A stretch of DNA of 64,000 bases from Chitinophagales bacterium (GCA_044228065.1 JBGAVP010000006.1:24077-88076); one strand, 5' to 3'. Positions 1,766 to 52,292 are shown, counted from the stretch's first letter. The notes: generated from the sequence alone by a model not told the origin. Program-made: numbers and translations.

Positions 1766-3346
1766 TTAATTTCTCTTAATAACAATACTTTTCGAAATCG
1801 AACTTTCCCCACTAGTAAGTACCATTAAATAATTCGCTGAAGCAAGCTCTTGCATTTTTAACTCAAGTGTACTTTCTCCTTTTTGCAATTCTACAACTTT
1901 GCTCCAAACTACACTGCCCTTCAAATCATAGACATTCACTTTCGATTTAAAAGCAGTTTCAGAATTCGTTTTCAGGAAAACAATACCCTTGCTCGGATTA
2001 GGGTACAATTCTATCTGAGCAGGAAAAGTGTGATGATGCTCCTCAATAGAAGTAGGGGCTAAATCTCTTTCATCATAACCCGAACTGATGGGTATGGCTA
2101 GTTTTGCGGCAGTGGCTATGGTAGCTTTTACAACATTGGTCATAAAAGTAAAATTGAGAGTGCCTATACTATCGCCTGGAGTGTGGTAATTTTTATTTCG
2201 AGTATTCGCACCATCAGTGAGCATGAGTGCGCTTTTTCCATTGTCCCAAAAAGAAGCATGATCGCTTCTTCTTAAGTCTGGTGCTATACTTCCATTTTGT
2301 GGCACTTCCAAGGAAGTTATTTTTAATGCTGGTACATACTGCGAAGCTGCGGTTGTGAATTGAGAAATCAAAGAACTAGAAGTTGTGTTTCCACAAACAA
2401 TAAGACTGTTTCCTTTAAAGCTATCTGCTTGCAATTTTTGGTATGCTTGCGGAAAAAGTAAATCAAAGCCTGCTGGTGTGGTTTGTGAATGAAAGGAATC
2501 AGAGTAATAACCTATCATTTCGAAATTTAAAACTCCTTGAATGCTATCATAAGGTTTGATACCGTTTTGAACATAGCGTTGACTACCTACTAAACCAAGT
2601 TCTTCGAAATCAAATCCAATAAAACGAAGTGAGTGTTCAAAATTATATTTTGATAAAATACGAACTGCCTCCAGTATTCCTGCTACTCCAGAACCATTGT
2701 CATCAGCTGCGGGTGCAGTAGCCACTCCATCATAATGTGCATCTATCAGGTAGGTGGTGTTCTCTTCTTTTAATCCAGCTTTTCTACCTAAAATATTTTG
2801 TCCAGATTCAACACCATAAACAAAATTTTGTCTTTCGGTGGTTAGTCTAGCTCTGTTAAAACGCTGTTCAATAGAATCTCTTACCTCATTTAGATGAACA
2901 GTGCCTGCACTAAAATGACGGATGCCTTCAATGAATTTTAAATTACTTTTTAAACGATTGCTATCTACAGCATTTACCATGTCGGCAATATTTACAGGCT
3001 TATTGTCAGAGGCAAGCACTCTAATTTTGGTATCGTATATATTGCCTGTATGCGAAGAGTAATCCCACACAATTGATTTGCTATTTCCAGGATTAATTCC
3101 GGTGCCAAAATCATTGGATAATTCTCCGCTTGGTACTGCTTCAAAATAATCACCACCATCTTTTGAAATTTTTACCCAAACATCACAAGTATTATTTTCA
3201 ATATCTAAAAGAGTATAATTGATAGTTACCTGTTGCGATACCTCATCTACGATTGCAGATTGAATAGATACAGTAGGAGGGGTATTCTGAGCATCAGAAA
3301 AGAAAGTAGTTAGACAAAGACTAATTAGCGTAGCTATTTTTTTCAT
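1766..3346 (-). CDS. M28-family aminopeptidase with T9SS C-terminal sorting domain
   Basis: Has a signal peptide and the M28 zinc-ligand region (IDAHYDGV...DDNGSGVAGILEAVRIL...FEELGLVGS). The C-terminus (ELYPNPSKGIVFLK...) is a type A Por/T9SS sorting domain. Confidence 0.8.
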   Translation of the reverse strand: MKKIATLISLCLTTFFSDAQNTPPTVSIQSAIVDEVSQQVTINYTLLDIENNTCDVWVKISKDGGDYFEAVPSGELSNDFGTGINPGNSKSIVWDYSSHTGNIYDTKIRVLASDNKPVNIADMVNAVDSNRLKSNLKFIEGIRHFSAGTVHLNEVRDSIEQRFNRARLTTERQNFVYGVESGQNILGRKAGLKEENTTYLIDAHYDGVATAPAADDNGSGVAGILEAVRILSKYNFEHSLRFIGFDFEELGLVGSQRYVQNGIKPYDSIQGVLNFEMIGYYSDSFHSQTTPAGFDLLFPQAYQKLQADSFKGNSLIVCGNTTSSSLISQFTTAASQYVPALKITSLEVPQNGSIAPDLRRSDHASFWDNGKSALMLTDGANTRNKNYHTPGDSIGTLNFTFMTNVVKATIATAAKLAIPISSGYDERDLAPTSIEEHHHTFPAQIELYPNPSKGIVFLKTNSETAFKSKVNVYDLKGSVVWSKVVELQKGESTLELKMQELASANYLMVLTSGESSISKSIVIKRN

Positions 3347-39878: not shown

Positions 39879-40370
39879 TTAAAGCAATAATAATTCGCCT
39901 AGTCTAAAGAAAACCTCTTCTACCCCTAAATCTTCTTTGGCACTACAAAAGAAATCAGGTTTTGTTGGCATCATTTTCTTTACATTTTCGGTTTCTACTG
40001 CATTTAGTAAATCACATTTATTAGCAGCAATTACTAGAGGTACACCAGGTAATTTACTTTTAAGAAACGCAAGATCTTCATTCATATTTAAGAATGAAGG
40101 TGGAGCTGATATGTCTACTACATAAATGATTCCACTAGAGCCCAGAAAATAAGATTGGGGTGTATTTTGCTGACTGCTTTCACCTGCCAAATCCCAAATA
40201 ATTAAGTTTAGAATATTATCCTTAATGGTGATTTGTTTTTTATCAATTCTAACTCCAATGGTAGAAATGTATTGCTCAGAAAACCTATGATGTACATAAC
40301 GATTTACCATAGACGTTTTTCCCACATTCACATTTCCTACTAGGATTATTTTCTTACTTTGTTCAGTCAT
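39879..40370 (-). CDS. Ras-superfamily (Rab-like) small GTPase
   Basis: G1 GNVNVGKTS, a switch I YISTIGV identical to the Rab consensus, G3 WDLAGE, G4 NKCD, G5 CSAK. 163 aa. Confidence 0.8.
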   Translation of the reverse strand: MTEQSKKIILVGNVNVGKTSMVNRYVHHRFSEQYISTIGVRIDKKQITIKDNILNLIIWDLAGESSQQNTPQSYFLGSSGIIYVVDISAPPSFLNMNEDLAFLKSKLPGVPLVIAANKCDLLNAVETENVKKMMPTKPDFFCSAKEDLGVEEVFFRLGELLLL

Positions 40371-41196
40371 GATTTATGAAATGATTTTCTAGATTTAATG
40401 AGATTTGCTTTTGCACCTCGCTCGTTACATTTTTTATACCCTCTTTTAAATAATTAGTTACAAAGGCATCTGCTTTTTCTTGTAATTTAGATTTAAAGTC
40501 TGCTCCAGCTATACCAGAAACTACAAATGCCATTTTAAAAGTGTAGTAATCTAACAATAAAATTTTATTGTTTTCATATTCTATGGTGCTCAATGTCTGG
40601 TTTTGCTTATGAAAAGCATCTTCTACAAACGATTTGATGGCAGTAAGCATTCCCGCTATCATATCTTGATCTGATAAATCATTTTTAGAATAGCTGCCTA
40701 AAAGCAAACCAGAATCGTTTTGGATTACAAAAATTTCTTCGATACTGGCTTTGTTTAACTCGCTTAAAATAATGGAGGAACTATCTGCTCCAGAGAAAAA
40801 GGCTTTTACTCTGTGAATCCAAATATCTAAATCAAAAGTGGTGGAAATTTGATTATCTATAGATTCCGTTAACTTCTCGAGTTCAGCTTGTAGATATTTC
40901 TTGATAAGTTTGCCGATTATAGGATAGAGCGAATTGATAACTTCATCTTGAGAGTCTTTTAACTCGCGTTGAATAGCATCTTTCAGTTCTCCTTTAAACT
41001 CTAAACTAAAATTTTTCTTGAGGTAGTCAATTTTAGCTTGTGCAAAGGGTTCTACTTTGTTTCCGAAATTTTCTGGCACTAATAATTCATCCTTCAATCG
41101 CTCCAATTCCGTTTCGATAGAAAGACTTAATTTACGGTCATCTTCTAGTAAGATAGCTCGTAAAGTTTCTAATGCTTGTTCTTTTTCGGCAAACAT
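40363..41196 (-). CDS. coiled-coil protein with a C-terminal Roadblock/LC7 (MglB-like) domain
   Basis: The C-terminal half (IEEIFVIQNDSGLLLGSYS...MIAGMLTAIKSFVEDAF...ILLLDYYTFKMAFVVSG) follows the Roadblock strand/helix pattern. Its stop overlaps the GTPase start by 8 nt. Confidence 0.5.
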   Translation of the reverse strand: MFAEKEQALETLRAILLEDDRKLSLSIETELERLKDELLVPENFGNKVEPFAQAKIDYLKKNFSLEFKGELKDAIQRELKDSQDEVINSLYPIIGKLIKKYLQAELEKLTESIDNQISTTFDLDIWIHRVKAFFSGADSSSIILSELNKASIEEIFVIQNDSGLLLGSYSKNDLSDQDMIAGMLTAIKSFVEDAFHKQNQTLSTIEYENNKILLLDYYTFKMAFVVSGIAGADFKSKLQEKADAFVTNYLKEGIKNVTSEVQKQISLNLENHFINHD

Positions 41197-41204
41197 GAAA
41201 TTGT

Positions 41205-41537
41205 TTAAGAAGAGATTTTTTCTCCTATGTCCATGAGCATTTTACCCAATTTCTTGCGGTCTAATTTTTTCTCATCAATCTTAGCTAACTCTTCCAAGAG
41301 TTTTTGCTGATTGCTTTCCATTTTAGCATTTAGTTTTTTATCTAAATCATCTATGGCTTTGCGAACTGCCGTAAATTCTTTGTCTATAGCATTTAGATTG
41401 GTGTTTATATAATCGCGTAAATCATTAAATTCTTTATCATACTGGCGCATGTTTTGCCCGAAGATGATTTCTTTGATGGCATCAATTTTTGCAATTTCAT
41501 TTGCTGCAGGATCTGCGGATTTGTTTTCTTTTCCCAT
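41205..41537 (-). CDS. small coiled-coil protein
   Basis: 110-aa charged, heptad-like ORF immediately upstream of the Roadblock-like gene, 8 nt away. Confidence 0.5.
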   Translation of the reverse strand: MGKENKSADPAANEIAKIDAIKEIIFGQNMRQYDKEFNDLRDYINTNLNAIDKEFTAVRKAIDDLDKKLNAKMESNQQKLLEELAKIDEKKLDRKKLGKMLMDIGEKISS

Positions 41538-44506: not shown

Positions 44507-44537
44507 AAAATGCCACTCCAAAAGGGTGGCATTTTTA
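44507..44537 (+). terminator. rho-independent terminator after the csp gene
   Basis: AAAATGCCAC-TCCAAAAG-GGTGGCATTTTT. Confidence 0.65.
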
Positions 44538-44673
44538 GTTTTGGGAACTCCACTAACAGTATGTTAGTTGCTTTGTCAGTGAATGCTTATACTCTTTGTA
44601 TGTAAGTTAAAAGTTGCTTAGCTCATTTTAGCAAGTAATAAATATACCAAATCTTGAATAGGAACATTTTTCT

Positions 44674-44691
44674 ATATGGCAATTGCCATAT
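44674..44691. promoter_or_regulatory. perfect 18-bp palindrome (candidate operator) upstream of the four-gene operon
   Basis: ATATGGCAATTGCCATAT equals its own reverse complement. It lies 122 nt upstream of the ATG at 44813. Confidence 0.4.
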
Positions 44692-44812
44692 TTGTTGATT
44701 TTTTACTTTACCACTTACAAGGTTTTTATATTAGAATACTCATAAGTATAAGTATTTTTTTATACTTGTAGCAAAATACATTTTCCATTCAGTTATATAA
44801 CATTTCAATTTT

Positions 44813-47800
44813 ATGGCAACAACAAAAGGACCAGAGACACCTGTAACAAAGACAGAGGATTTAAATTTAATAATGAATCGTTTTTCAGGAAAAGTTGAAG
44901 TGTTGAATCCAAGCGGTTCGGGAGTGATTTCTGCTGCAGGTTATTTTTTAGATGTATATGCCAGCACAATTAGTATCACTTTTGATAAAGCCTATTCTCC
45001 AATAGGTAACAGTATCATGCTTTCAGATGATGGTAGTTTCACATTCGATGCTACAGCTACTAATTTATCATCAGCCTCTGTAACTTTTGTAGTGCGATCA
45101 GCTAATGGTTTACCTGCTACTATTGTCTCTGGCAATGCTACCGTGAATAACATTTTCAAAAAAGGCGGTGCGTTTGTATTGCAAGTAAAGCCATACAGTC
45201 CTATGAATTTGGGTAGTGGAACATCTACACCTTCTAATAAAGTTTTAGTAAAAGGCAAAGCTATATATGATGATGGAGAGGTAGTAAAAGAAAAAAGGAT
45301 TGTTCTTTATGCTAAAAATGGGGATACTACTGATACCACGGTGCTTACACTTGAAACAGTAAAAACTCAACCCAATGGAGAGTTTAAAGTATTGGTAGCA
45401 AACACAAAGTTTAGAGATGCGTTTGCTGTTTTGGGTGATAGAGATAATAGTAATACTTGTGTAATCCCATTGGATAATGCTGGGAAGTTTAACAATAAAT
45501 TGATTTTAGTATTTCAAAATAAAATGGAAAGTGATGAGGATTGCGCTTGTACTGATAAAACGCCTCGACTACCCGATGCAGATGATTTGATAAGTCCTGA
45601 AAATAAGTATTCACAAGATATAGGAGGGAATTGTGTGAATTTTACAACACCTAACAGAAGTCTAGAAGAGTTTACTTTTTCATCTATTGTACGTACTACA
45701 GACCCGCGTGGCGAATACACTGCTATGACCAAAGAAGCCATAGCAGAAGAATGGGATGGAAATACTGCTAATACTGCAAATTTTAAAAAGTATTTAGATA
45801 AAACCTTGCGTCAGTCGCTCACCAAAAAAAATCAGTTAGAGTGGGATCATCCTGACAAAAAATTTTCCATTTATCAAGCACTCACAATTGCACATGGACA
45901 TGTACTCACTTTTAAACAAGTTTTTAAATCTGATGGTTATAGTATGGGCGATTTGGTTTATTCGCTTCCGCTTGCTCCTGGGCAAAAAAAATTGATTGTG
46001 ACCTACGATTGGAATAGAGTAGATGAAGCAACTAAAATAGATGATTTAACAGCTGAAGATAGACTAACTGCGAGCATTAGTCGTGACAGAGATATTGATG
46101 AAATTATTTCTGGTTCACTTAGTGAAGATGTAAAAGGAGGGAGTAAAAGCAAAACAAGTGGATGGAGTGTAGGTGGTGGAGTTTCTGCGCCTGCTGTTGG
46201 GCCTGTTTCGGTTTCGGTGAGTGGCGGGTATAATTCTGGTAAAGCGTCTTCTGAGTCTTGGCAGCAGTCTTCCAAAGACATGACCTCTAGTCTGCATAAT
46301 AAATTGAAAGATTCGACACAGCAAAGTTCTTCGATGTTGCGCAGTCAAAGGAATACGGTAATAGCTACTGCCAAACAAGGTGAGTCATATTCAGTTACCT
46401 CAGAAGTAGTTGCCAATCACAATCATTGCCATGCCGTTACTATGCAATATTTTCAAGTTTTGCGACATATTGTTGTAGAACAAGAATTGAGCGATGTACA
46501 AGAGTGTTTGTTTGTTCCACTAACCATAGCACCTTTTGATGCAAAAAAGGTTTTGCGTTGGAGACAATCACTTCAGAATAATTTGCGGTTAAATCGTTTT
46601 TCAAAACTAGGGAAAGAATTGCAAAAGGGCTTTGATTCCATGGAACGAATAGATAAAAATTACGTAAACTTTGATGTGCCTCCAGTAGTATCAGACAGTA
46701 AGATTCGAGAAGTTTATGGAAGTTTTAAGTTGCGTTTAAATTTAAATCGTCCACAAGATAAATCCATAGCTGATTCTCAGTTTGGGCCAGCATTTCAACA
46801 AGCCCTTCAAAGTGATAATTTCATGTCTGAAATGGTGCAGCGTTCACTGATGAATTACCAAGATGTGAATGAAGCAAATTGGACTAGTTACAGTCGTTAT
46901 TTTTCTTCGTTCAGTGTGGAGTCTATCAAGTCACTTTTTACTGGAAAATCGCAAATAGAGCGCGACACTATTTTTTATGAACAAATAGCACCTGAAATTG
47001 CTGAGAATTATGTCCAAAAATTGATGCTAACAGGTATGGCACAAAACATAAATTTTGTAGGGTTTTCAATAGATGGGAAATGGAAGAAAGGGGAAGATTT
47101 AAACATAAGGATTAATACCATTGTCCCTAAAAATGGAACTTCAATAGTTTTGAAACGTAGTGATATCCCTAATCTTCAGATTATTACTAAACTAAATGAG
47201 CCACATATAGATTCACAAGTTACTTCTGGGTATATCAATTATAGAACATCACATTATAATGGGGTTTTTACTAATTATATTTCAGGAAGTACACGTTCTA
47301 TAGATCCTCAAATAGGAGCTTTTGTTTACACTCCTTTGAAACCTGAAGAATCGTTTGATTTTAAGAAAGAAGATATTAGGCTCTCAACCCAATTGCTAGA
47401 TCACATGAATAATGAGAATTTAGAATATTACCATCATGTGATTTGGTATCATGGGATTACTCCAGATAGGCGCTATATGATGTTAGATAGAATTCAATTA
47501 GATAGCCCCGATTTTACACAAGTATATGCTGAACGCGGGGTATTGGGCAGAAGTGTGGCATCTTTGGTAGAAAATAGAATTATTGCGTTGGTTGGAAACT
47601 GTTTGGTGTTTCCTGTAGCTGCTGGCTATAACCTAGACCCAACTTATAAACTAAAAGATAGTGACACAGCCGATGAAAGTGGCATGTCTTTTAATTCGTT
47701 GTTAGAGCATTACCAACCTATTTCTGAAACTGATGGGAATTACAAACCTAGTTATAGAATTAGTATTCCTACTCCAGGTGTGTTTGCTGAAGCAGTGATG

Positions 47801-48598
47801 GGAGCTTGTAATTCTTGTGAAAAAGTAGATGACAGCCGTTTTTGGCAATGGGAAGACCACCCGATAGATGAGCCAACTGCTATCAATCCAATAGATACTA
47901 GCAGTCGTTATCAAAATCCTTTAAATACTCAAGGAAGAGATTTTTCTACACCTGTTATTAACATTCAAAATTCACCAGCAGCACCTGACCCTACAAATAT
48001 GGCTGGGGTATTTGATTTACTCGGAAAGTCAGGGACATTTAAAGATATTACTGGCACTGATGCTACCAATGCTAATGCCATGGGAGCATTGAATGCTGCA
48101 AATAGTCTTGCTAAAGCTAATGGAGATAATGCTACCAAATTAGCATCGGAAGCATTGAAAGAGGGGCTTTTTAGTCAAAACAAGATGGCTACCATGAAAA
48201 ATGCTACCAAAAATATGGCTAAAGGAGAAGATTATATTGATAGAAATTGGCCAGCAAAAGATTTTCCTGAAAAGAATAAGGAACTAAAAGAAAAATTATT
48301 CAATTCCGTATTAGGCGGAGACCCTCTGGGAGGTAAGAAAGACCCAAGTAAAAACGGTGGTAGCACCGATGACAACAATAGTGGTGGTAGTACTGATGAT
48401 GAGAATGGCGGAAGTAGTGGAGATACTGGTACCAGTAATGCAGCACCAGGGCAAAAATCATTAGCAGAAATTTTATCTGGAATGCAAGGTGAATTGGATG
48501 ATTTCAGAAATCGGTATGTACATGATATGGGAGATTACATTGCAGGTATTGATACTAGTGGTTTTCCAAACGATTCTAATCCCACTAATGTAGTATAA
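44813..48598 (+). CDS. 1261-aa protein of unknown family (no export signal), first gene of the candidate protease operon
   Basis: Long uninterrupted ORF with an N-terminal Ig/CarboxypepD_reg-like beta-sandwich region, a Gly/Ser-rich central segment, a His/Cys cluster (NHNHCH) and an acidic low-complexity C-terminal tail. No signal peptide, TM helix or T9SS CTD. Confidence 0.8.
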   Translation: MATTKGPETPVTKTEDLNLIMNRFSGKVEVLNPSGSGVISAAGYFLDVYASTISITFDKAYSPIGNSIMLSDDGSFTFDATATNLSSASVTFVVRSANGLPATIVSGNATVNNIFKKGGAFVLQVKPYSPMNLGSGTSTPSNKVLVKGKAIYDDGEVVKEKRIVLYAKNGDTTDTTVLTLETVKTQPNGEFKVLVANTKFRDAFAVLGDRDNSNTCVIPLDNAGKFNNKLILVFQNKMESDEDCACTDKTPRLPDADDLISPENKYSQDIGGNCVNFTTPNRSLEEFTFSSIVRTTDPRGEYTAMTKEAIAEEWDGNTANTANFKKYLDKTLRQSLTKKNQLEWDHPDKKFSIYQALTIAHGHVLTFKQVFKSDGYSMGDLVYSLPLAPGQKKLIVTYDWNRVDEATKIDDLTAEDRLTASISRDRDIDEIISGSLSEDVKGGSKSKTSGWSVGGGVSAPAVGPVSVSVSGGYNSGKASSESWQQSSKDMTSSLHNKLKDSTQQSSSMLRSQRNTVIATAKQGESYSVTSEVVANHNHCHAVTMQYFQVLRHIVVEQELSDVQECLFVPLTIAPFDAKKVLRWRQSLQNNLRLNRFSKLGKELQKGFDSMERIDKNYVNFDVPPVVSDSKIREVYGSFKLRLNLNRPQDKSIADSQFGPAFQQALQSDNFMSEMVQRSLMNYQDVNEANWTSYSRYFSSFSVESIKSLFTGKSQIERDTIFYEQIAPEIAENYVQKLMLTGMAQNINFVGFSIDGKWKKGEDLNIRINTIVPKNGTSIVLKRSDIPNLQIITKLNEPHIDSQVTSGYINYRTSHYNGVFTNYISGSTRSIDPQIGAFVYTPLKPEESFDFKKEDIRLSTQLLDHMNNENLEYYHHVIWYHGITPDRRYMMLDRIQLDSPDFTQVYAERGVLGRSVASLVENRIIALVGNCLVFPVAAGYNLDPTYKLKDSDTADESGMSFNSLLEHYQPISETDGNYKPSYRISIPTPGVFAEAVMGACNSCEKVDDSRFWQWEDHPIDEPTAINPIDTSSRYQNPLNTQGRDFSTPVINIQNSPAAPDPTNMAGVFDLLGKSGTFKDITGTDATNANAMGALNAANSLAKANGDNATKLASEALKEGLFSQNKMATMKNATKNMAKGEDYIDRNWPAKDFPEKNKELKEKLFNSVLGGDPLGGKKDPSKNGGSTDDNNSGGSTDDENGGSSGDTGTSNAAPGQKSLAEILSGMQGELDDFRNRYVHDMGDYIAGIDTSGFPNDSNPTNVV

Positions 48599-48601
48599 TC
48601 T

Positions 48602-49561
48602 ATGGCAGCAAACGATAATTTTTTCAATTGGGGGTATGCTATGTGTTTGGCAAAAAACGAAAAATTGCCCAATGCGATTCCCTCTGCACAGCGCATGGCG
48701 TATTATCTTAGTAATATATCAACTTCTGGAGTTGTTCTAAGAGATTACCATGAAGTAACTACTCTTACCGAATCTGAGGTTAACATTAAAACATTAATTG
48801 AGGGAATTATTAATTTGGCGATCACAGCTAAAGCAGGCGATGTAGTTACATTGTATTTCGCTATGCATGGCTACGTAGGAGAGGGAAGCACTCACTACAA
48901 AACACCCGATACAAATTTCTTACTTTTTGATGGTTTGCGATTTAGCGAACGTGAATTGTTTTTTCTTTTGAAACTGTTTGAAACTGATGTGCGAGTAAAT
49001 GTAATAATGGATGTATGCAACAGTGGTACATGGCTTACAGGCTTTCAGCGCGATTCATGTAAAGAAGAACGAGAATTTGATTTTTTTGTAAAATCATTGA
49101 AAGAAAAAGAGTCTGCATTAGCCTTTCAATTAAACCTGTTGAAACCTTATTATTTGGATAAACCATTGGCAGCTACTGTGAATGTTTTTGGTGCTATTGG
49201 TGATTTTTTAAATATAAATGATACTGTTTGTTTGGAGTATTACATTACAAAACTAAAGCTAAAGAAAGGACATTTAAATTTTACGAATCAAGAATTAATA
49301 AAGGAATTAAGAGCGGTAGCATTTGATGTAGTGCTTAGTTTGCCCACAGATAAACCTGGAAGAAATCTTTGGCATACTTACTATAAAGATTATTCTGGGT
49401 CAGTACTAAAATGTATCATTCCCGATATAATGTCTGTTCCAAATTTTGATAATACCAATCCTTATCACTTGCAAGCAATGCAGGCAATTATGCCCAAACT
49501 AACACAACTAGGAGAAAATCATTATAAGTATAAACACAATAATGTTTTTGCTTTAAACTAA
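48602..49561 (+). CDS. caspase/metacaspase-like (clan CD) cysteine protease, paralog 1
   Basis: VTLYFAMHG (His89, nt 48866-48868) and VIMDVCNSG (Cys139, nt 49016-49018) match the metacaspase pattern hfSGHG ... iiDsCHSG with about 50-aa spacing. The preceding block NWGYAMCLAKN...AIPSAQRMAYYL resembles the caspase beta1/helix1. Confidence 0.65.
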   Translation: MAANDNFFNWGYAMCLAKNEKLPNAIPSAQRMAYYLSNISTSGVVLRDYHEVTTLTESEVNIKTLIEGIINLAITAKAGDVVTLYFAMHGYVGEGSTHYKTPDTNFLLFDGLRFSERELFFLLKLFETDVRVNVIMDVCNSGTWLTGFQRDSCKEEREFDFFVKSLKEKESALAFQLNLLKPYYLDKPLAATVNVFGAIGDFLNINDTVCLEYYITKLKLKKGHLNFTNQELIKELRAVAFDVVLSLPTDKPGRNLWHTYYKDYSGSVLKCIIPDIMSVPNFDNTNPYHLQAMQAIMPKLTQLGENHYKYKHNNVFALN

Positions 49562-49570
49562 ATAACAAAG

Positions 49571-50539
49571 ATGGCTGAAGGAGGACAATTTTACAACTGG
49601 GGTTATGGGCTGTGTATAGCTATTAATGATGGTTTACCCAATGCTATACCTTCGGCAAATAATATGGCCAATATGCTATGGAAGCGAAAATCTGGTAGTT
49701 TGGGATTGCAAAGTGATTACTATTCGGTTACTACACTTTATGATGCTGCAGCTACTTATGAAAATGTAATTACTGCCATTTTAGATTTAGCTGCAAAAAG
49801 TATTGCTGGTGATATTGTAACCATTTATTTTGGGTTGCATGGAGAAGCGAGAAGAGGCGAAAATAGAGTTGAAAATTTCAACCGACTTCTTTTGCATGAT
49901 TATAAATTCTTTACTGAAGATGAGTTGTATGCTTTGCTTCGTTTGTTCTCTGAAGATGTACGAGTAGTGGTAGTGATGGATATTTGCCAAAGTGGAACCT
50001 GGTTGAATGAGCTTACTATCAAAGATGATTGTGTTTTGGAAAAAGTATGTAACAGTATGATTAATAAATCGGTGAGTTATAATTGTAGCAAGAGTTTTCA
50101 AAATACGATGGTAAAATTAAAGCCCATGATACTTGCTAGCCCATTGGTATCCACGGTGACTATAATAGGTGCCATTTCTGACTCGATTAATATTTCTGAT
50201 TCCGATTGTTTTGCTAGCTTCTTAACTCAAACTTGGAGTAAAGACGGAAACTTGTGGAAAGATATGGAAAGCCTAATTAGGCGAGTGAGAGAGGTAGCAT
50301 TTGAAAGAATAGTAGATAAGCCTGTGGAAGTAAGTGGTGGTTGTACTCGGTGGAAAATGTATTATGTTGACTATTGTGAACTTGTGTTGAAATGTCCAAT
50401 ATCAGAGGATTACGCCCCTAGTTATGATTACAATAACCAACACCATCAGGATGCTATGCGTCATTTTTTACCAACTATAAATTTTCTTGGACCACACCAC
50501 GATAAATATAGTAGCTACAAGGCCTTTTGTGTAAACTAA
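49571..50539 (+). CDS. caspase/metacaspase-like (clan CD) cysteine protease, paralog 2
   Basis: It aligns with paralogs 1 and 3 over its full length. VTIYFGLHG and VVVMDICQSGTW are conserved. Confidence 0.65.
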   Translation: MAEGGQFYNWGYGLCIAINDGLPNAIPSANNMANMLWKRKSGSLGLQSDYYSVTTLYDAAATYENVITAILDLAAKSIAGDIVTIYFGLHGEARRGENRVENFNRLLLHDYKFFTEDELYALLRLFSEDVRVVVVMDICQSGTWLNELTIKDDCVLEKVCNSMINKSVSYNCSKSFQNTMVKLKPMILASPLVSTVTIIGAISDSINISDSDCFASFLTQTWSKDGNLWKDMESLIRRVREVAFERIVDKPVEVSGGCTRWKMYYVDYCELVLKCPISEDYAPSYDYNNQHHQDAMRHFLPTINFLGPHHDKYSSYKAFCVN

Positions 50540-50551
50540 AGAAGTAGAAAA

Positions 50552-51523
50552 ATGGAAAACGAGTTTAACTTTTACAATTGGGGCTACGGAATGTGTGTGG
50601 CTATTAATGATGGTTTAGATAATGCTATCCCTTCTGCTAACTATTTCAACTATATGCTTTCCCAAAGAGCATCTGGCACATTTGGAGCCATGAGTGATTA
50701 TGCAGAAATTACTAATTTATTCGATGATAATGCTACTTTTGAAAAAGTGTTGTTAGGATTTATTGACCTTGCAATAAAAGCCAAAGCTGGTGATATTGTA
50801 ACTGTTTATTTTGCATTGCATGGTTCTTCTTCTCAAACTTCTAATTCCAGCAGACGAAGCAACAAATTATCTTTAAAAAACACTTACTTGACTGAGGAGG
50901 AGCTTTATCTATTACTCAAGCTCTTTAGGCCAGATGTGCGCGTAGTATTGGTTATGGATATTTGCCAGAGCGGTTCTTGGATTGACACTCCCAATTTAGA
51001 AAGTTGTAAGGAATACGAGGCTTATCAATCATTAAAGAAAAAAGTAGATAGGTTTTGCAGTAAAGCTACTTATCAAACTATCTTAAATTTATACACCGCT
51101 TTTTTACAAACAAAATTAGATGCTACCATAACTGTAATTGGGGCTATAAATGATAGATTAGGTGTAAATGATGATATTTGCTTTGCTACATTTCTAAGAG
51201 CAGTTAGCAGTAAACGTGGTAATTTGAATCTGAATATGGATAATTTGATAAAGGAATTGAGGAGGAGAGCTGTACTAATTATTCAAAATATTGATGGGGA
51301 TTATTGCTATAGAGTGACTGATGATATTAATTTATGGAAGGCTTACTATGCATCTTATTCTGAAATAATATTAAACTGTCCAATGGAATTTAAAGATAGC
51401 CCTTCTTTCCACTCTCAAAATCAACATCACCAAGAGGCGATGCTTCACTTTTTACCAACTGTAAATTTTATAGGTCCTAACCACGAAAAGTATTTTGATA
51501 AAAATGCTTTCTGTGTGAATTGA
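50552..51523 (+). CDS. caspase/metacaspase-like (clan CD) cysteine protease, paralog 3
   Basis: It aligns with paralogs 1 and 2 over its full length. VTVYFALHG and VLVMDICQSGSW are conserved. It shares the C-terminal motif QHHQ.AM.HFLPT.NF.GP.H.KY....AFCVN with paralog 2. Confidence 0.65.
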   Translation: MENEFNFYNWGYGMCVAINDGLDNAIPSANYFNYMLSQRASGTFGAMSDYAEITNLFDDNATFEKVLLGFIDLAIKAKAGDIVTVYFALHGSSSQTSNSSRRSNKLSLKNTYLTEEELYLLLKLFRPDVRVVLVMDICQSGSWIDTPNLESCKEYEAYQSLKKKVDRFCSKATYQTILNLYTAFLQTKLDATITVIGAINDRLGVNDDICFATFLRAVSSKRGNLNLNMDNLIKELRRRAVLIIQNIDGDYCYRVTDDINLWKAYYASYSEIILNCPMEFKDSPSFHSQNQHHQEAMLHFLPTVNFIGPNHEKYFDKNAFCVN

Positions 51524-51560: not shown

Positions 51561-52229
51561 TTACATTCTCAAAGAAAACTTCAATCCAATAGAAGTTTGA
51601 GGGGCGAGGAAAGTAGTATTGAACTGAATCTCTGGTTCAATATGCAAAGAAAGTTTATCAGTCATATCGTAATGGAATAGATGTCCATCTACAGCAGCAT
51701 CTACTAAATTTAATCCATACCACAATGCCAAACATATTGCTGAAATATCTAGGTATCGTTTATAATAATTACGATAGGTTATGAGCGTTTCAGATTGAGT
51801 GATTCCATTGTAAGAACCTACTGTTGCAGGGTTGCCATCTACTTGTAGACGGTAAGCATTTCTTGCTCCGTAAAAGTTTCTCCCCGTATAATATACTGCA
51901 CAACCTATCCCTGCAAAACCAGCATAAACTATAGGGATTTTCCAATATTTTTTATTGTAAGCTTGCCCTAAACCTGGTAATATAGCAGACATCCAAACTG
52001 CTTTAGAAGCACTATGCTTTTTTTCTTTCTTATTTTTTGAAAGAGTAGTGTCTATACTGCCTGCCGTGAAAGAGTTGGGAATAGAATCGGTCTTATTAAT
52101 CGTAAAAGATAAAGTATCCTTTTTGGGAATTTCTAGAATAGAATCAGTTGTAATAGACTGCGCTTGCACAAATATTGCAACTATTAAAAATGCCAACAGC
52201 ATCCCAATTCTTTTGCTGATTTCAGCCAT
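51561..52229 (-). CDS. DUF5683-domain membrane protein
   Basis: The core AVWMSAILPGLGQAYNKKYWKIPIVYAGFAG is typical of DUF5683, downstream of parB as in many Bacteroidota. The ATG at 52229 gives a signal-like N-terminus. The ORF track extends to a TTG at 52292. Confidence 0.7.
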   Translation of the reverse strand: MAEISKRIGMLLAFLIVAIFVQAQSITTDSILEIPKKDTLSFTINKTDSIPNSFTAGSIDTTLSKNKKEKKHSASKAVWMSAILPGLGQAYNKKYWKIPIVYAGFAGIGCAVYYTGRNFYGARNAYRLQVDGNPATVGSYNGITQSETLITYRNYYKRYLDISAICLALWYGLNLVDAAVDGHLFHYDMTDKLSLHIEPEIQFNTTFLAPQTSIGLKFSLRM

Positions 52230-52292
52230 TCTCTTATAATTTCTTGTAAGAATACTCTTGTAGTTTAAGGAAAATGTGATGTTGTATTTCAA

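Follow-up and report, generated by a model that had tools for sequence, protein, structure and literature searches.

In a 64,000-nt stretch of the genome of a Chitinophagales bacterium (GCA_044228065.1 JBGAVP010000006.1:24077-88076; hereafter the window), four consecutive plus-strand open reading frames (ORFs) occupy positions 44813-51523, the first encoding a giant protein, here termed BIG, and the other three encoding paralogous caspase-fold proteases, termed C1, C2 and C3 (Table 1). We find BIG to be co-conserved with such caspases in other genomes and to belong to a large protein family in which a variable enzyme is either fused to the C-terminal side of a conserved core or encoded just downstream. 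Given that this C-terminal enzyme is swappable and comes in both arrangements, the caspases would be payload, and our preferred, albeit tentative, interpretation is that the operon encodes a split effector made of a carrier (BIG) and its payload (C1-C3).

Co-conservation of the large gene with the caspases was found at nine of nine loci with sufficient upstream sequence, with BIG preceding the caspases at a distance of 0-20 nt. The caspase paralogs number three in the window, four in L001 (BIG 77% identical to that of the window), two in L004 (57%), one in L012 (34%), two in L016 (33%), three in L092 (BIG of 1236 aa), two each in L094 (1230 aa) and L095 (1226 aa), and three in L099 (1707 aa). 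Flanking genes are unlike in every one of these loci and the chromosomal sites differ, indicating that the BIG-caspase module moves as a unit. Short contigs (L089, L090, L091, L093 and L098) carry tandem paralogs or a possible BIG-like tail at the cut end, the latter being clearest in L091. On L090, a caspase paralog at positions 3-946, upstream of P0127, is split over two frames, reflecting either pseudogenization by a frameshift or faulty assembly. L093 (1.3 kb, 65% GC) encodes a member of the caspase subfamily preceded by the Ala-rich end of another ORF, possibly a BIG tail, and given this contig, BIG-caspase pairing may reach beyond low-GC Flavobacteriales.

In a neighbor-joining tree, orthology followed gene position: C1 grouped with L001a, C2 with L001b, and C3 with L001c and L001d, and a second clade held all first-position copies together, separate from the later-position copies. 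This old duplication with preserved gene order argues for non-redundant roles of the paralogs. Between the window and L001, caspase orthologs share 46-58% identity (58% for C2 and L001b) as compared to 77% for BIG; the faster divergence of the caspases is expected for a payload under arms-race selection.

The three small proteins had been described as mutually alignable and caspase-like, and both properties stood up to closer analysis. C1-C3 align end to end with 38-47% identity, and their catalytic His-Gly (H89 in C1) and Asp-x-Cys-x-Ser-Gly (C139 in C1) motifs are invariant in all three, in a 12-sequence alignment of homologs and in 36 of 36 subfamily members, which leaves no pseudo-enzymes in this set. 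The AlphaFold2 (AF2) model of C3 (predicted local distance difference test [pLDDT] 81.3, predicted TM-score [pTM] 0.84) adopts a caspase fold, with GSU0716 of Geobacter matching in a Foldseek search of the PDB at E 1.6e-12 (probability 1.0) and AtMC9, AtMC4, Yca1, TbMCA2, caspase-9, legumain and MALT1 likewise reaching probability 1.0. Concordantly, a 12-member caspase profile retrieved GSU0716 (3e-16) and metacaspases from the PDB, with the His-Gly, D-x-C-H-S-G and downstream Asp-rich motifs in register (SGHG and DSCHSG of GSU0716/metacaspase-4). At the level of single sequences, no PF00656 match was obtained for C1-C3 in the Pfam scan, and the window copies gave sub-threshold matches to Peptidase_C13 (E 1e-3) and the NCBIfam model caspase_w_EACC1 (E 8.5e-5); among the more divergent proteins of the subfamily, L012 scores 26.2 bits and L016b scores 39.0 bits, above the 21.4-bit cut-off of Pfam C14. 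Two invariant Asp residues (D201 and D207 in C1) lie at the position of the acidic S1 pocket of metacaspases, which suggests a P1 preference for Arg or Lys, after which C1-C3 would cleave.

C1-C3 thus share their fold, dyad motifs and an Asp-rich segment (GAIxDx5D vs SGCQDxQxSxD) with orthocaspases and metacaspases such as GSU0716, AtMC9, Yca1 and TbMCA2. Unlike other metacaspases, they form a divergent and narrow subfamily whose genes occur in arrays of one to four, always behind a BIG gene where enough sequence is available. An exhaustive hidden Markov model (HMM) search of 1.84 billion representatives yielded 26 full-length clusters at E<1e-30, as compared to 4523 generic caspase or orthocaspase matches at E<1e-3; word-indexed searches had found five to six subfamily proteins, the remainder coming from the HMM search. 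Metagenome scans with caspase alignments gave nothing for one alignment and one true locus, L099, for another. Subfamily proteins are single-domain and 320-375 aa long, and the whole ~320-aa chain aligns to the metacaspase p20-p10 fold, with no sensor or repeat domain. Close to the subfamily (E 1e-21 to 2.5e-31) stand the N-terminal caspase domains of four giant proteins of 2000-3000 aa (P0177, P0181, P0184 and P0186).

BIG itself had been considered an orphan, which proved true for curated families only: no meaningful match was obtained in Pfam, NCBIfam, PADLOC, PHROGs or, by sequence profile, the PDB. Beyond these collections, it is a member of a large pan-bacterial family with 120 strong homologs in the protein database and at least 314 loci among the species genomes of GTDB, for which we found no description in the searchable literature by locus tag or domain combination. 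Hosts span many phyla and include Myxococcota (~43% identity over 90% of the length), many Bacteroidota, Streptomyces, Micromonospora, four Legionella species, Chloroflexota, Acidobacteriota, Verrucomicrobiota, Obscuribacterales, Entotheonella and one Nitrosopumilus metagenome-assembled genome (MAG); predatory or antagonistic taxa (Myxococcota, Persicimonas, Saprospiraceae, Streptomyces) are frequent among them. Relatives also reside on Streptomyces megaplasmids and on one Psychrobacter plasmid. In Myxococcus xanthus, the homolog is WP_174257238.1. The homolog in the Nitrosopumilus MAG (L075, on a 1.8-Mb contig) is 1575 aa long, with no Pfam match in its tail, and belongs to cells devoid of peptidoglycan; either this contig has been wrongly assigned, or wall-bearing cells are not the only hosts of the family. 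Mapping of homologs delimited a conserved core of ~1000 aa, corresponding to BIG residues ~146-1170, with the near-invariant motifs HGH, ADGYSxGDLxYSLPLAPGQKK, VVANHNHCHAxTxQYFEVLRH, QECLF and GACNSCEK.

Most homologs measure 1500-2100 aa, and the additional length is C-terminal of the core. This layout, a conserved core (146-1170) with variable domains at its C-terminal side only, is reminiscent of polymorphic toxins. Additional Pfam domains include C11 (at 1379-1737), C70 followed by Amidase_2, and, in one homolog, a true Pesticin muramidase domain (E 5e-38). When 78 BIG tails were scanned against Pfam, Peptidase_C70 was the most frequent domain (20 tails), followed by Amidase_2 (6), PETase-like (4), GH25 (2) and Tyrosinase (2), with M15_4, M23, Muramidase, Amidase_6, DUF2272, OmpA and PG_binding_1 in one tail each. 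Legionella tails combine C70 with Amidase_2, one tail from Tenacibaculum includes a tyrosinase, P0015 and P0055 are BIGs with a fused clan-CD peptidase (C11), and precomputed annotations of homologs add ricin and tectonin lectins and HhH modules. Wall-binding modules (LysM-like, PG_binding and OmpA) are also found. Apart from the lectins, tyrosinase and esterases, the predicted tail enzymes essentially match the repertoire of endolysins. Some BIGs (1364-1421 aa) terminate in a C70 domain alone, so that a protease can serve as the terminal module. The Myxococcus xanthus tail (L005, 13880-14986; ~370 aa) has no Pfam match; the HExxH motif within it (VSHEWALH) suggests a metallopeptidase warhead not annotated so far.

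In 24 of 193 proteins, BIG ends ~50-120 residues past the core. Where the downstream gene of such short-tailed BIGs could be read, it typically encoded a separate enzyme at a distance of 0-40 nt, of a class that is fused in other BIGs: a tyrosinase in L021 and L036 (fused in L020), an Amidase_2 protein in L038 and a PG_binding_1+M15 protein in L078. The present caspases complete this list, clan CD being represented among the fused enzymes by C11. The type of short tail co-varies with the partner. Caspase-linked tails consist of the acidic linker and a helix of the type ...ILSGM..(E/D)LDDFR.(R/K)Y... or ...NDPDF...R..ID..L.D...., and tyrosinase-linked tails read ...Y(D/E).LREDYD....ES.NNF. The helix at the end of the window BIG, with its conserved DF-x3-5-R/K pattern, may serve for docking or be a site of cleavage.

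An AF2 model of BIG residues 60-1200 (pLDDT 71, pTM 0.50) places a transthyretin-like β-sandwich first, followed by long hairpins, mixed α/β domains and long C-terminal helices. The long-hairpin module harbors the family motifs HGH, YSLPLAPGQKK and NHNHCH, and its middle hairpin is rich in Gly and Ser, with hydrophobic residues in alternation, throughout the family (GWSVGGGVSAPAVGPVSVSVSGGY in the window, AGGIGAGIGALLGPVMIGV in another member). The β-periodic hydrophobic moment of this segment ranks in the 96-98th percentile in four of five proteins, and its hydropathy is moderate (maximum 19-residue Kyte-Doolittle value with a median of 1.16, and of at least 1.6 in 10 of 61 homologs). The best PDB matches of the model in Foldseek were pore forms of aerolysin (E 3e-5), lysenin, CytK and γ/α-hemolysin, along with Cry51. 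The stem of α-hemolysin is glycine-rich, and the Gly/hydrophobic alternation of BIG recalls it, which we take as a suggestive, if unproven, sign of membrane insertion. As in these β-pore-forming toxins (aerolysin, lysenin, α-hemolysin/CytK), very long β-hairpins are predicted in BIG on either side of an alternating one rich in Gly and Ser; unlike them, it matches with a probability of ~0.2 and without a sequence-family match, and its hairpin tips are conserved, with His/Cys/Lys motifs (NHNHCH, LAPGQKK).

In the arrangement we favor, BIG would act as a carrier composed of one or more N-terminal β-sandwich domains and the ~1000-aa core with three very long β-hairpins, the Gly-rich amphipathic middle one of which would, as an oligomer, insert into or perforate a membrane. 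The acidic flexible linker after the core leads, in most family members, to a fused enzyme warhead, mostly an endolysin-type peptidoglycan hydrolase and otherwise a papain-like or clostripain-like peptidase, a tyrosinase or an esterase. The window BIG instead ends in its short conserved helix, and the three non-redundant orthocaspases would supply the warhead in trans, docked on this tail and perhaps joined in a hetero-oligomer. BIG would then carry or release the caspases, leading to degradation of proteins in the attacked cell or compartment. From the preliminary idea of a protease paired with a novel substrate, the caspase fold and the co-conservation are retained, while the family-wide evidence favors a carrier with a swappable enzyme over cleavage of such a substrate.

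Polymorphic toxins and colicin- or pesticin-type bacteriocins provide the closest parallel in layout, with a conserved N-terminal or central region and a hypervariable C-terminal enzyme. Colicins and pesticin likewise lack a signal peptide, and the loci of polymorphic toxins, like those of BIG, occupy non-syntenic positions. Unlike polymorphic toxins, the BIG carrier has no described trafficking domain (no PAAR, VgrG, LXG, MIX or type IX secretion system [T9SS] C-terminal domain was matched in the core by Pfam or NCBIfam) and no adjacent immunity gene, and most of its warheads act on the cell wall and are not nucleases or deaminases. As the family occurs in monoderms and diderms, as well as in the archaeal MAG, no single secretion system can be invoked.

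Several observations weigh against a carrier with caspase payload. No secretion signal is present on any component or at the N-termini of the 23 BIG homologs examined, and BIG loci have no recurrent small same-strand 3′ gene that could confer immunity, the 3′ neighbor often being convergent. No caspase of this subfamily is fused to the core in any of the 120 BIG homologs searched by BLAST and the subfamily HMM; the fused clan-CD domain is C11 and not of the C14-like subfamily. Stable retention of two to four position-specific paralogs is unusual for simple cargo, and cysteine proteases are a less obvious extracellular payload in aerobic Flavobacteriales. The matches to pore-forming toxins are weak (Foldseek probabilities 0.06-0.28, poor TM-scores), and the confidence of the BIG model is low precisely in the Gly-rich hairpin. 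The C70 domains may be CHAP-like wall peptidases, an assignment made by analogy with CHAP+Amidase_2 endolysins. Finally, we infer both the binding of the caspases to BIG and the direction of attack, i.e. on another cell or on the producer's own envelope. Predatory hosts and the presence of lectin, Ig-like, tyrosinase and esterase modules tend to favor attack on other cells; the lack of secretion signals and immunity genes leans toward self-lysis.

Possible, if on the unlikely side, is a protease-gated executioner, in which BIG is an inactive cytoplasmic precursor and one or more of the caspases cut off its tail or cut its linker upon a trigger such as phage or stress, whereupon the hairpins oligomerize in the cell's own membrane and cause death or lysis; the three paralogs would then form a cascade or heteromer or sense different triggers. 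Such gating would suit the absence of signal peptides throughout, would not need an immunity gene, and finds a candidate site in the basic residue that follows the DF motif in eight of eight complete caspase-associated tails (DDFRNR, DDFRSK, DFVAAR, DFIRVR, DFLQQR and NYIANR), in keeping with the Arg/Lys preference that the S1-pocket Asp pair hints at. It also has precedents. Aerolysin-type toxins require removal of a C-terminal peptide. In bacterial gasdermin operons, adjacent caspase-like proteases remove a short C-terminal peptide for activation (bioRxiv 10.1101/2021.06.07.447441), and the present operon resembles these operons in combining caspase-family genes with a candidate β-hairpin membrane protein that has a short C-terminal tail, all predicted to be cytoplasmic. 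BcpT and Bft, antibacterial or host toxins of Bacteroidales, become active once clan-CD C11 proteases (doripains and fragipain, respectively) have cut them after Arg (PMC9308784); these toxins are small and secreted and their proteases are secreted or lipoproteins and encoded elsewhere, unlike the window proteases, which are C14-like, without signal peptides and operon-linked.

On the other hand, the family as a whole does not require proteolytic gating, since most BIG homologs come without any protease, fused or separate, and the tyrosinase, amidase and M15 genes behind other tail-less BIGs cannot encode activating proteases. Unlike in gasdermin operons, the window caspases are devoid of the common sensor or repeat domains, and BIG is five times larger than gasdermin and unrelated to it in sequence and fold, with no gasdermin similarity of the hairpin module. 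Nor does the locus lie in a defense island, a setting the preliminary description had raised: its neighbors are DnaB, ParAB, thymidine kinase and KdtA, and ten neighboring proteins gave no match in PADLOC-DB v2. As that description had stated, the known partners of prokaryotic caspases are absent. The operon has no ~250-aa gasdermin-fold ORF, Foldseek of BIG returned no gasdermin, no CHAT, TPR or NACHT/STAND extension of the window proteins was matched by Pfam or NCBIfam, CRISPR is missing, and PADLOC gave a weak match of its 'caspase' model to C3 (E 2e-3).

It is improbable, in our view, that BIG is an intracellular self-lysis device, i.e. holin and endolysin in one chain, with the caspases as accessories that degrade cell proteins; the purpose would be programmed or altruistic lysis or the release of contents. 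The warheads do resemble the endolysin set (C70, Amidase_2, GH25, M15, M23 and muramidase, with PG_binding, LysM-like and OmpA modules), and phage endolysins similarly place a papain-like domain before Amidase_2, GH25, M15 or M23 and wall-binding domains, and have no signal peptide. That signal peptides and immunity genes are lacking fits as well, as do the housekeeping surroundings of the gene in Myxococcaceae, where near-full-length homologs are present in several genera and the M. xanthus gene (L005) is flanked by genes for pyruvate kinase and a BFN-domain protein. A bacterial caspase-like protease able to kill by broad proteolysis has been reported (bioRxiv 10.1101/2024.10.24.620036). Against self-lysis speak the lectin (ricin, tectonin), Ig-like, tyrosinase and PETase-like modules, which endolysins do not typically have and which suggest a target outside the cell, the many predatory or antagonistic hosts, and the fact that no regulator or trigger was identified. 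In addition, unlike in phage endolysins, the enzyme modules sit on a non-phage core of 1200-1500 aa. That the adjacency reflects mere co-transcription of a structural, adhesin-like or envelope protein with ordinary orthocaspases acting on unrelated substrates could draw on the unassigned functions of both partners, the moderate confidence of the BIG model and the abundance of orthocaspases in bacteria, and is nonetheless highly improbable given the tiny full-length subfamily, the invariable order and close spacing of BIG and caspase genes at differing chromosomal sites, and the tail type that tracks the partner type.

With respect to what is already known, the logic of a conserved carrier with a polymorphic enzyme has precedents, as has a caspase beside a membrane-active protein; what is new is the family of carriers, together with the pattern of split warheads and the obligate array of BIG and orthocaspases. 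A family with a ~1000-residue core in hundreds of species had remained absent from Pfam, NCBIfam, PADLOC, PHROGs and the PDB. Its endolysin-type warheads and pore-toxin-like hairpins suggest either self-lysis or a new way of passing wall enzymes and proteases through a membrane with no dedicated secretion system, and new lytic enzymes might be obtained from the warheads. With its four genes, the caspase branch is a compact system in which to study the partnering of a caspase with a membrane-active protein outside the gasdermin paradigm. A more far-reaching proposal, which we regard as rather unlikely, is that BIG founds a new class of giant, signal-less proteins that oligomerize via β-hairpins in the membrane and deliver enzymes, with a Flavobacteriales branch employing a constant, non-redundant set of two to four orthocaspases that dock on, and possibly cleave, the tail; if true, it would represent a caspase-gated or caspase-armed lysis or delivery system without a described counterpart.

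As for the operon itself, the outline of the preliminary description (four ORFs with narrow gaps, a terminator and spacer upstream, a convergent gene downstream) was confirmed on the sequence, the gaps measuring 3, 9 and 12 nt. Its statement that the proteins lack export signals and membrane helices held for signal peptides, which none of the four possesses; BIG does contain an amphipathic hairpin rich in Gly, Ser and Val (residues 450-473), not a transmembrane helix. The small gene ahead of the upstream hairpin appears to be of the cold-shock type, its product beginning with MYKGKVKFFNSTKGFGFI, a cold-shock-domain signature. A perfect 18-bp palindrome, ATATGGCAATTGCCATAT, is located within the spacer at 44674-44691 and could be an operator; no equivalent was seen upstream of the L001 and L004 homologs.

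Table 1 Features of the BIG-caspase operon and its borders, numbered from the first nucleotide of the window
Feature	Position	Strand	Remarks
Intrinsic-terminator-like hairpin	44507..44535	+	12-bp stem and T-run; ends upstream cold-shock-type gene; 5′ boundary of the unit
Spacer, ~277 bp	44536..44812	+	Between hairpin and BIG; presumed promoter/regulatory region
BIG (1261 aa)	44813..48598	+	ORF; member of a large unannotated family; core residues ~146-1170
N-terminal β-sandwich of BIG (residues ~143-234)	45239..45514	+	Transthyretin/CarboxypepD_reg type; AF2; Foldseek probability 1.0; weak TIGR04134 match
Long-hairpin module of BIG (residues 360-569)	45890..46519	+	AF2: six strands of 23-37 residues, forming three long hairpins
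Gly/Ser/Val-rich alternating segment GWSVGGGVSAPAVGPVSVSVSGGY (residues 450-473)	46160..46231	+	Candidate membrane-inserting β-hairpin; family alignment
Acidic Gly/Ser/Asp-rich disordered linker of BIG (residues ~1168-1214)	48314..48454	+	Low pLDDT; fused enzyme starts after it in most homologs
C-terminal tail of BIG (residues 1215-1261), helix KSLAEILSGMQGELDDFRNRY...	48455..48595	+	Conserved only in caspase-followed BIGs
C1, caspase-fold protease (319 aa)	48602..49561	+	His89 at 48866-48868, Cys139 at 49016-49018
C2, caspase-fold protease (322 aa)	49571..50539	+	His90 at 49838-49840, Cys139 at 49985-49987
C3, caspase-fold protease (323 aa)	50552..51523	+	His90 at 50819-50821, Cys138 at 50963-50965; modeled copy
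DUF5683 gene	51561..52292		Convergent 3′ neighbor of the operon; parB and parA beyond

Clustering of the neighbors of 81 BIG loci recovered only tandem BIGs, the caspases, an ORF of ~93 aa in Actinobacteria and a His-kinase/LytTR pair; most BIGs stand alone, with no conserved accessory gene. Tandem pairs of BIG paralogs occur in 13 loci (including L030, L052, L071, L080, L028, L047, L061, L073 and L084), and in four actinobacterial loci the conserved ~93-aa ORF lies between the paired BIGs. The His-kinase (~960-1100 aa, Reg_prop/His_kinase) and LytTR pair adjoins BIG in the Bacteroidota loci L004 (15164-18773), L040 and L072, and may be a dedicated regulator.

A phage origin of BIG was considered and rejected as a general explanation, with no PHROG match, Ig-like folds as the only BFVD matches, and near-absence of the family from phages. 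A distant relative of the core (25% identity) is encoded at 1930-3294 of MT835996.1, an unannotated 'Bacteriophage sp.' entry from human feces in INPHARED, and a single IMG/VR contig, L096, bears a BIG relative (41% over the best segment); both may be mis-binned bacterial DNA.

The window otherwise represents an ordinary chromosome of Bacteroidota type, with T9SS substrates among its genes. At 39879-41537 on the minus strand, an apparent operon encodes a Ras/Roc small GTPase (162 aa; Pfam Ras, E 5e-30) together with proteins of 276 and 109 aa that have no Pfam match; Ras-like GTPase modules are uncommon in prokaryotes.

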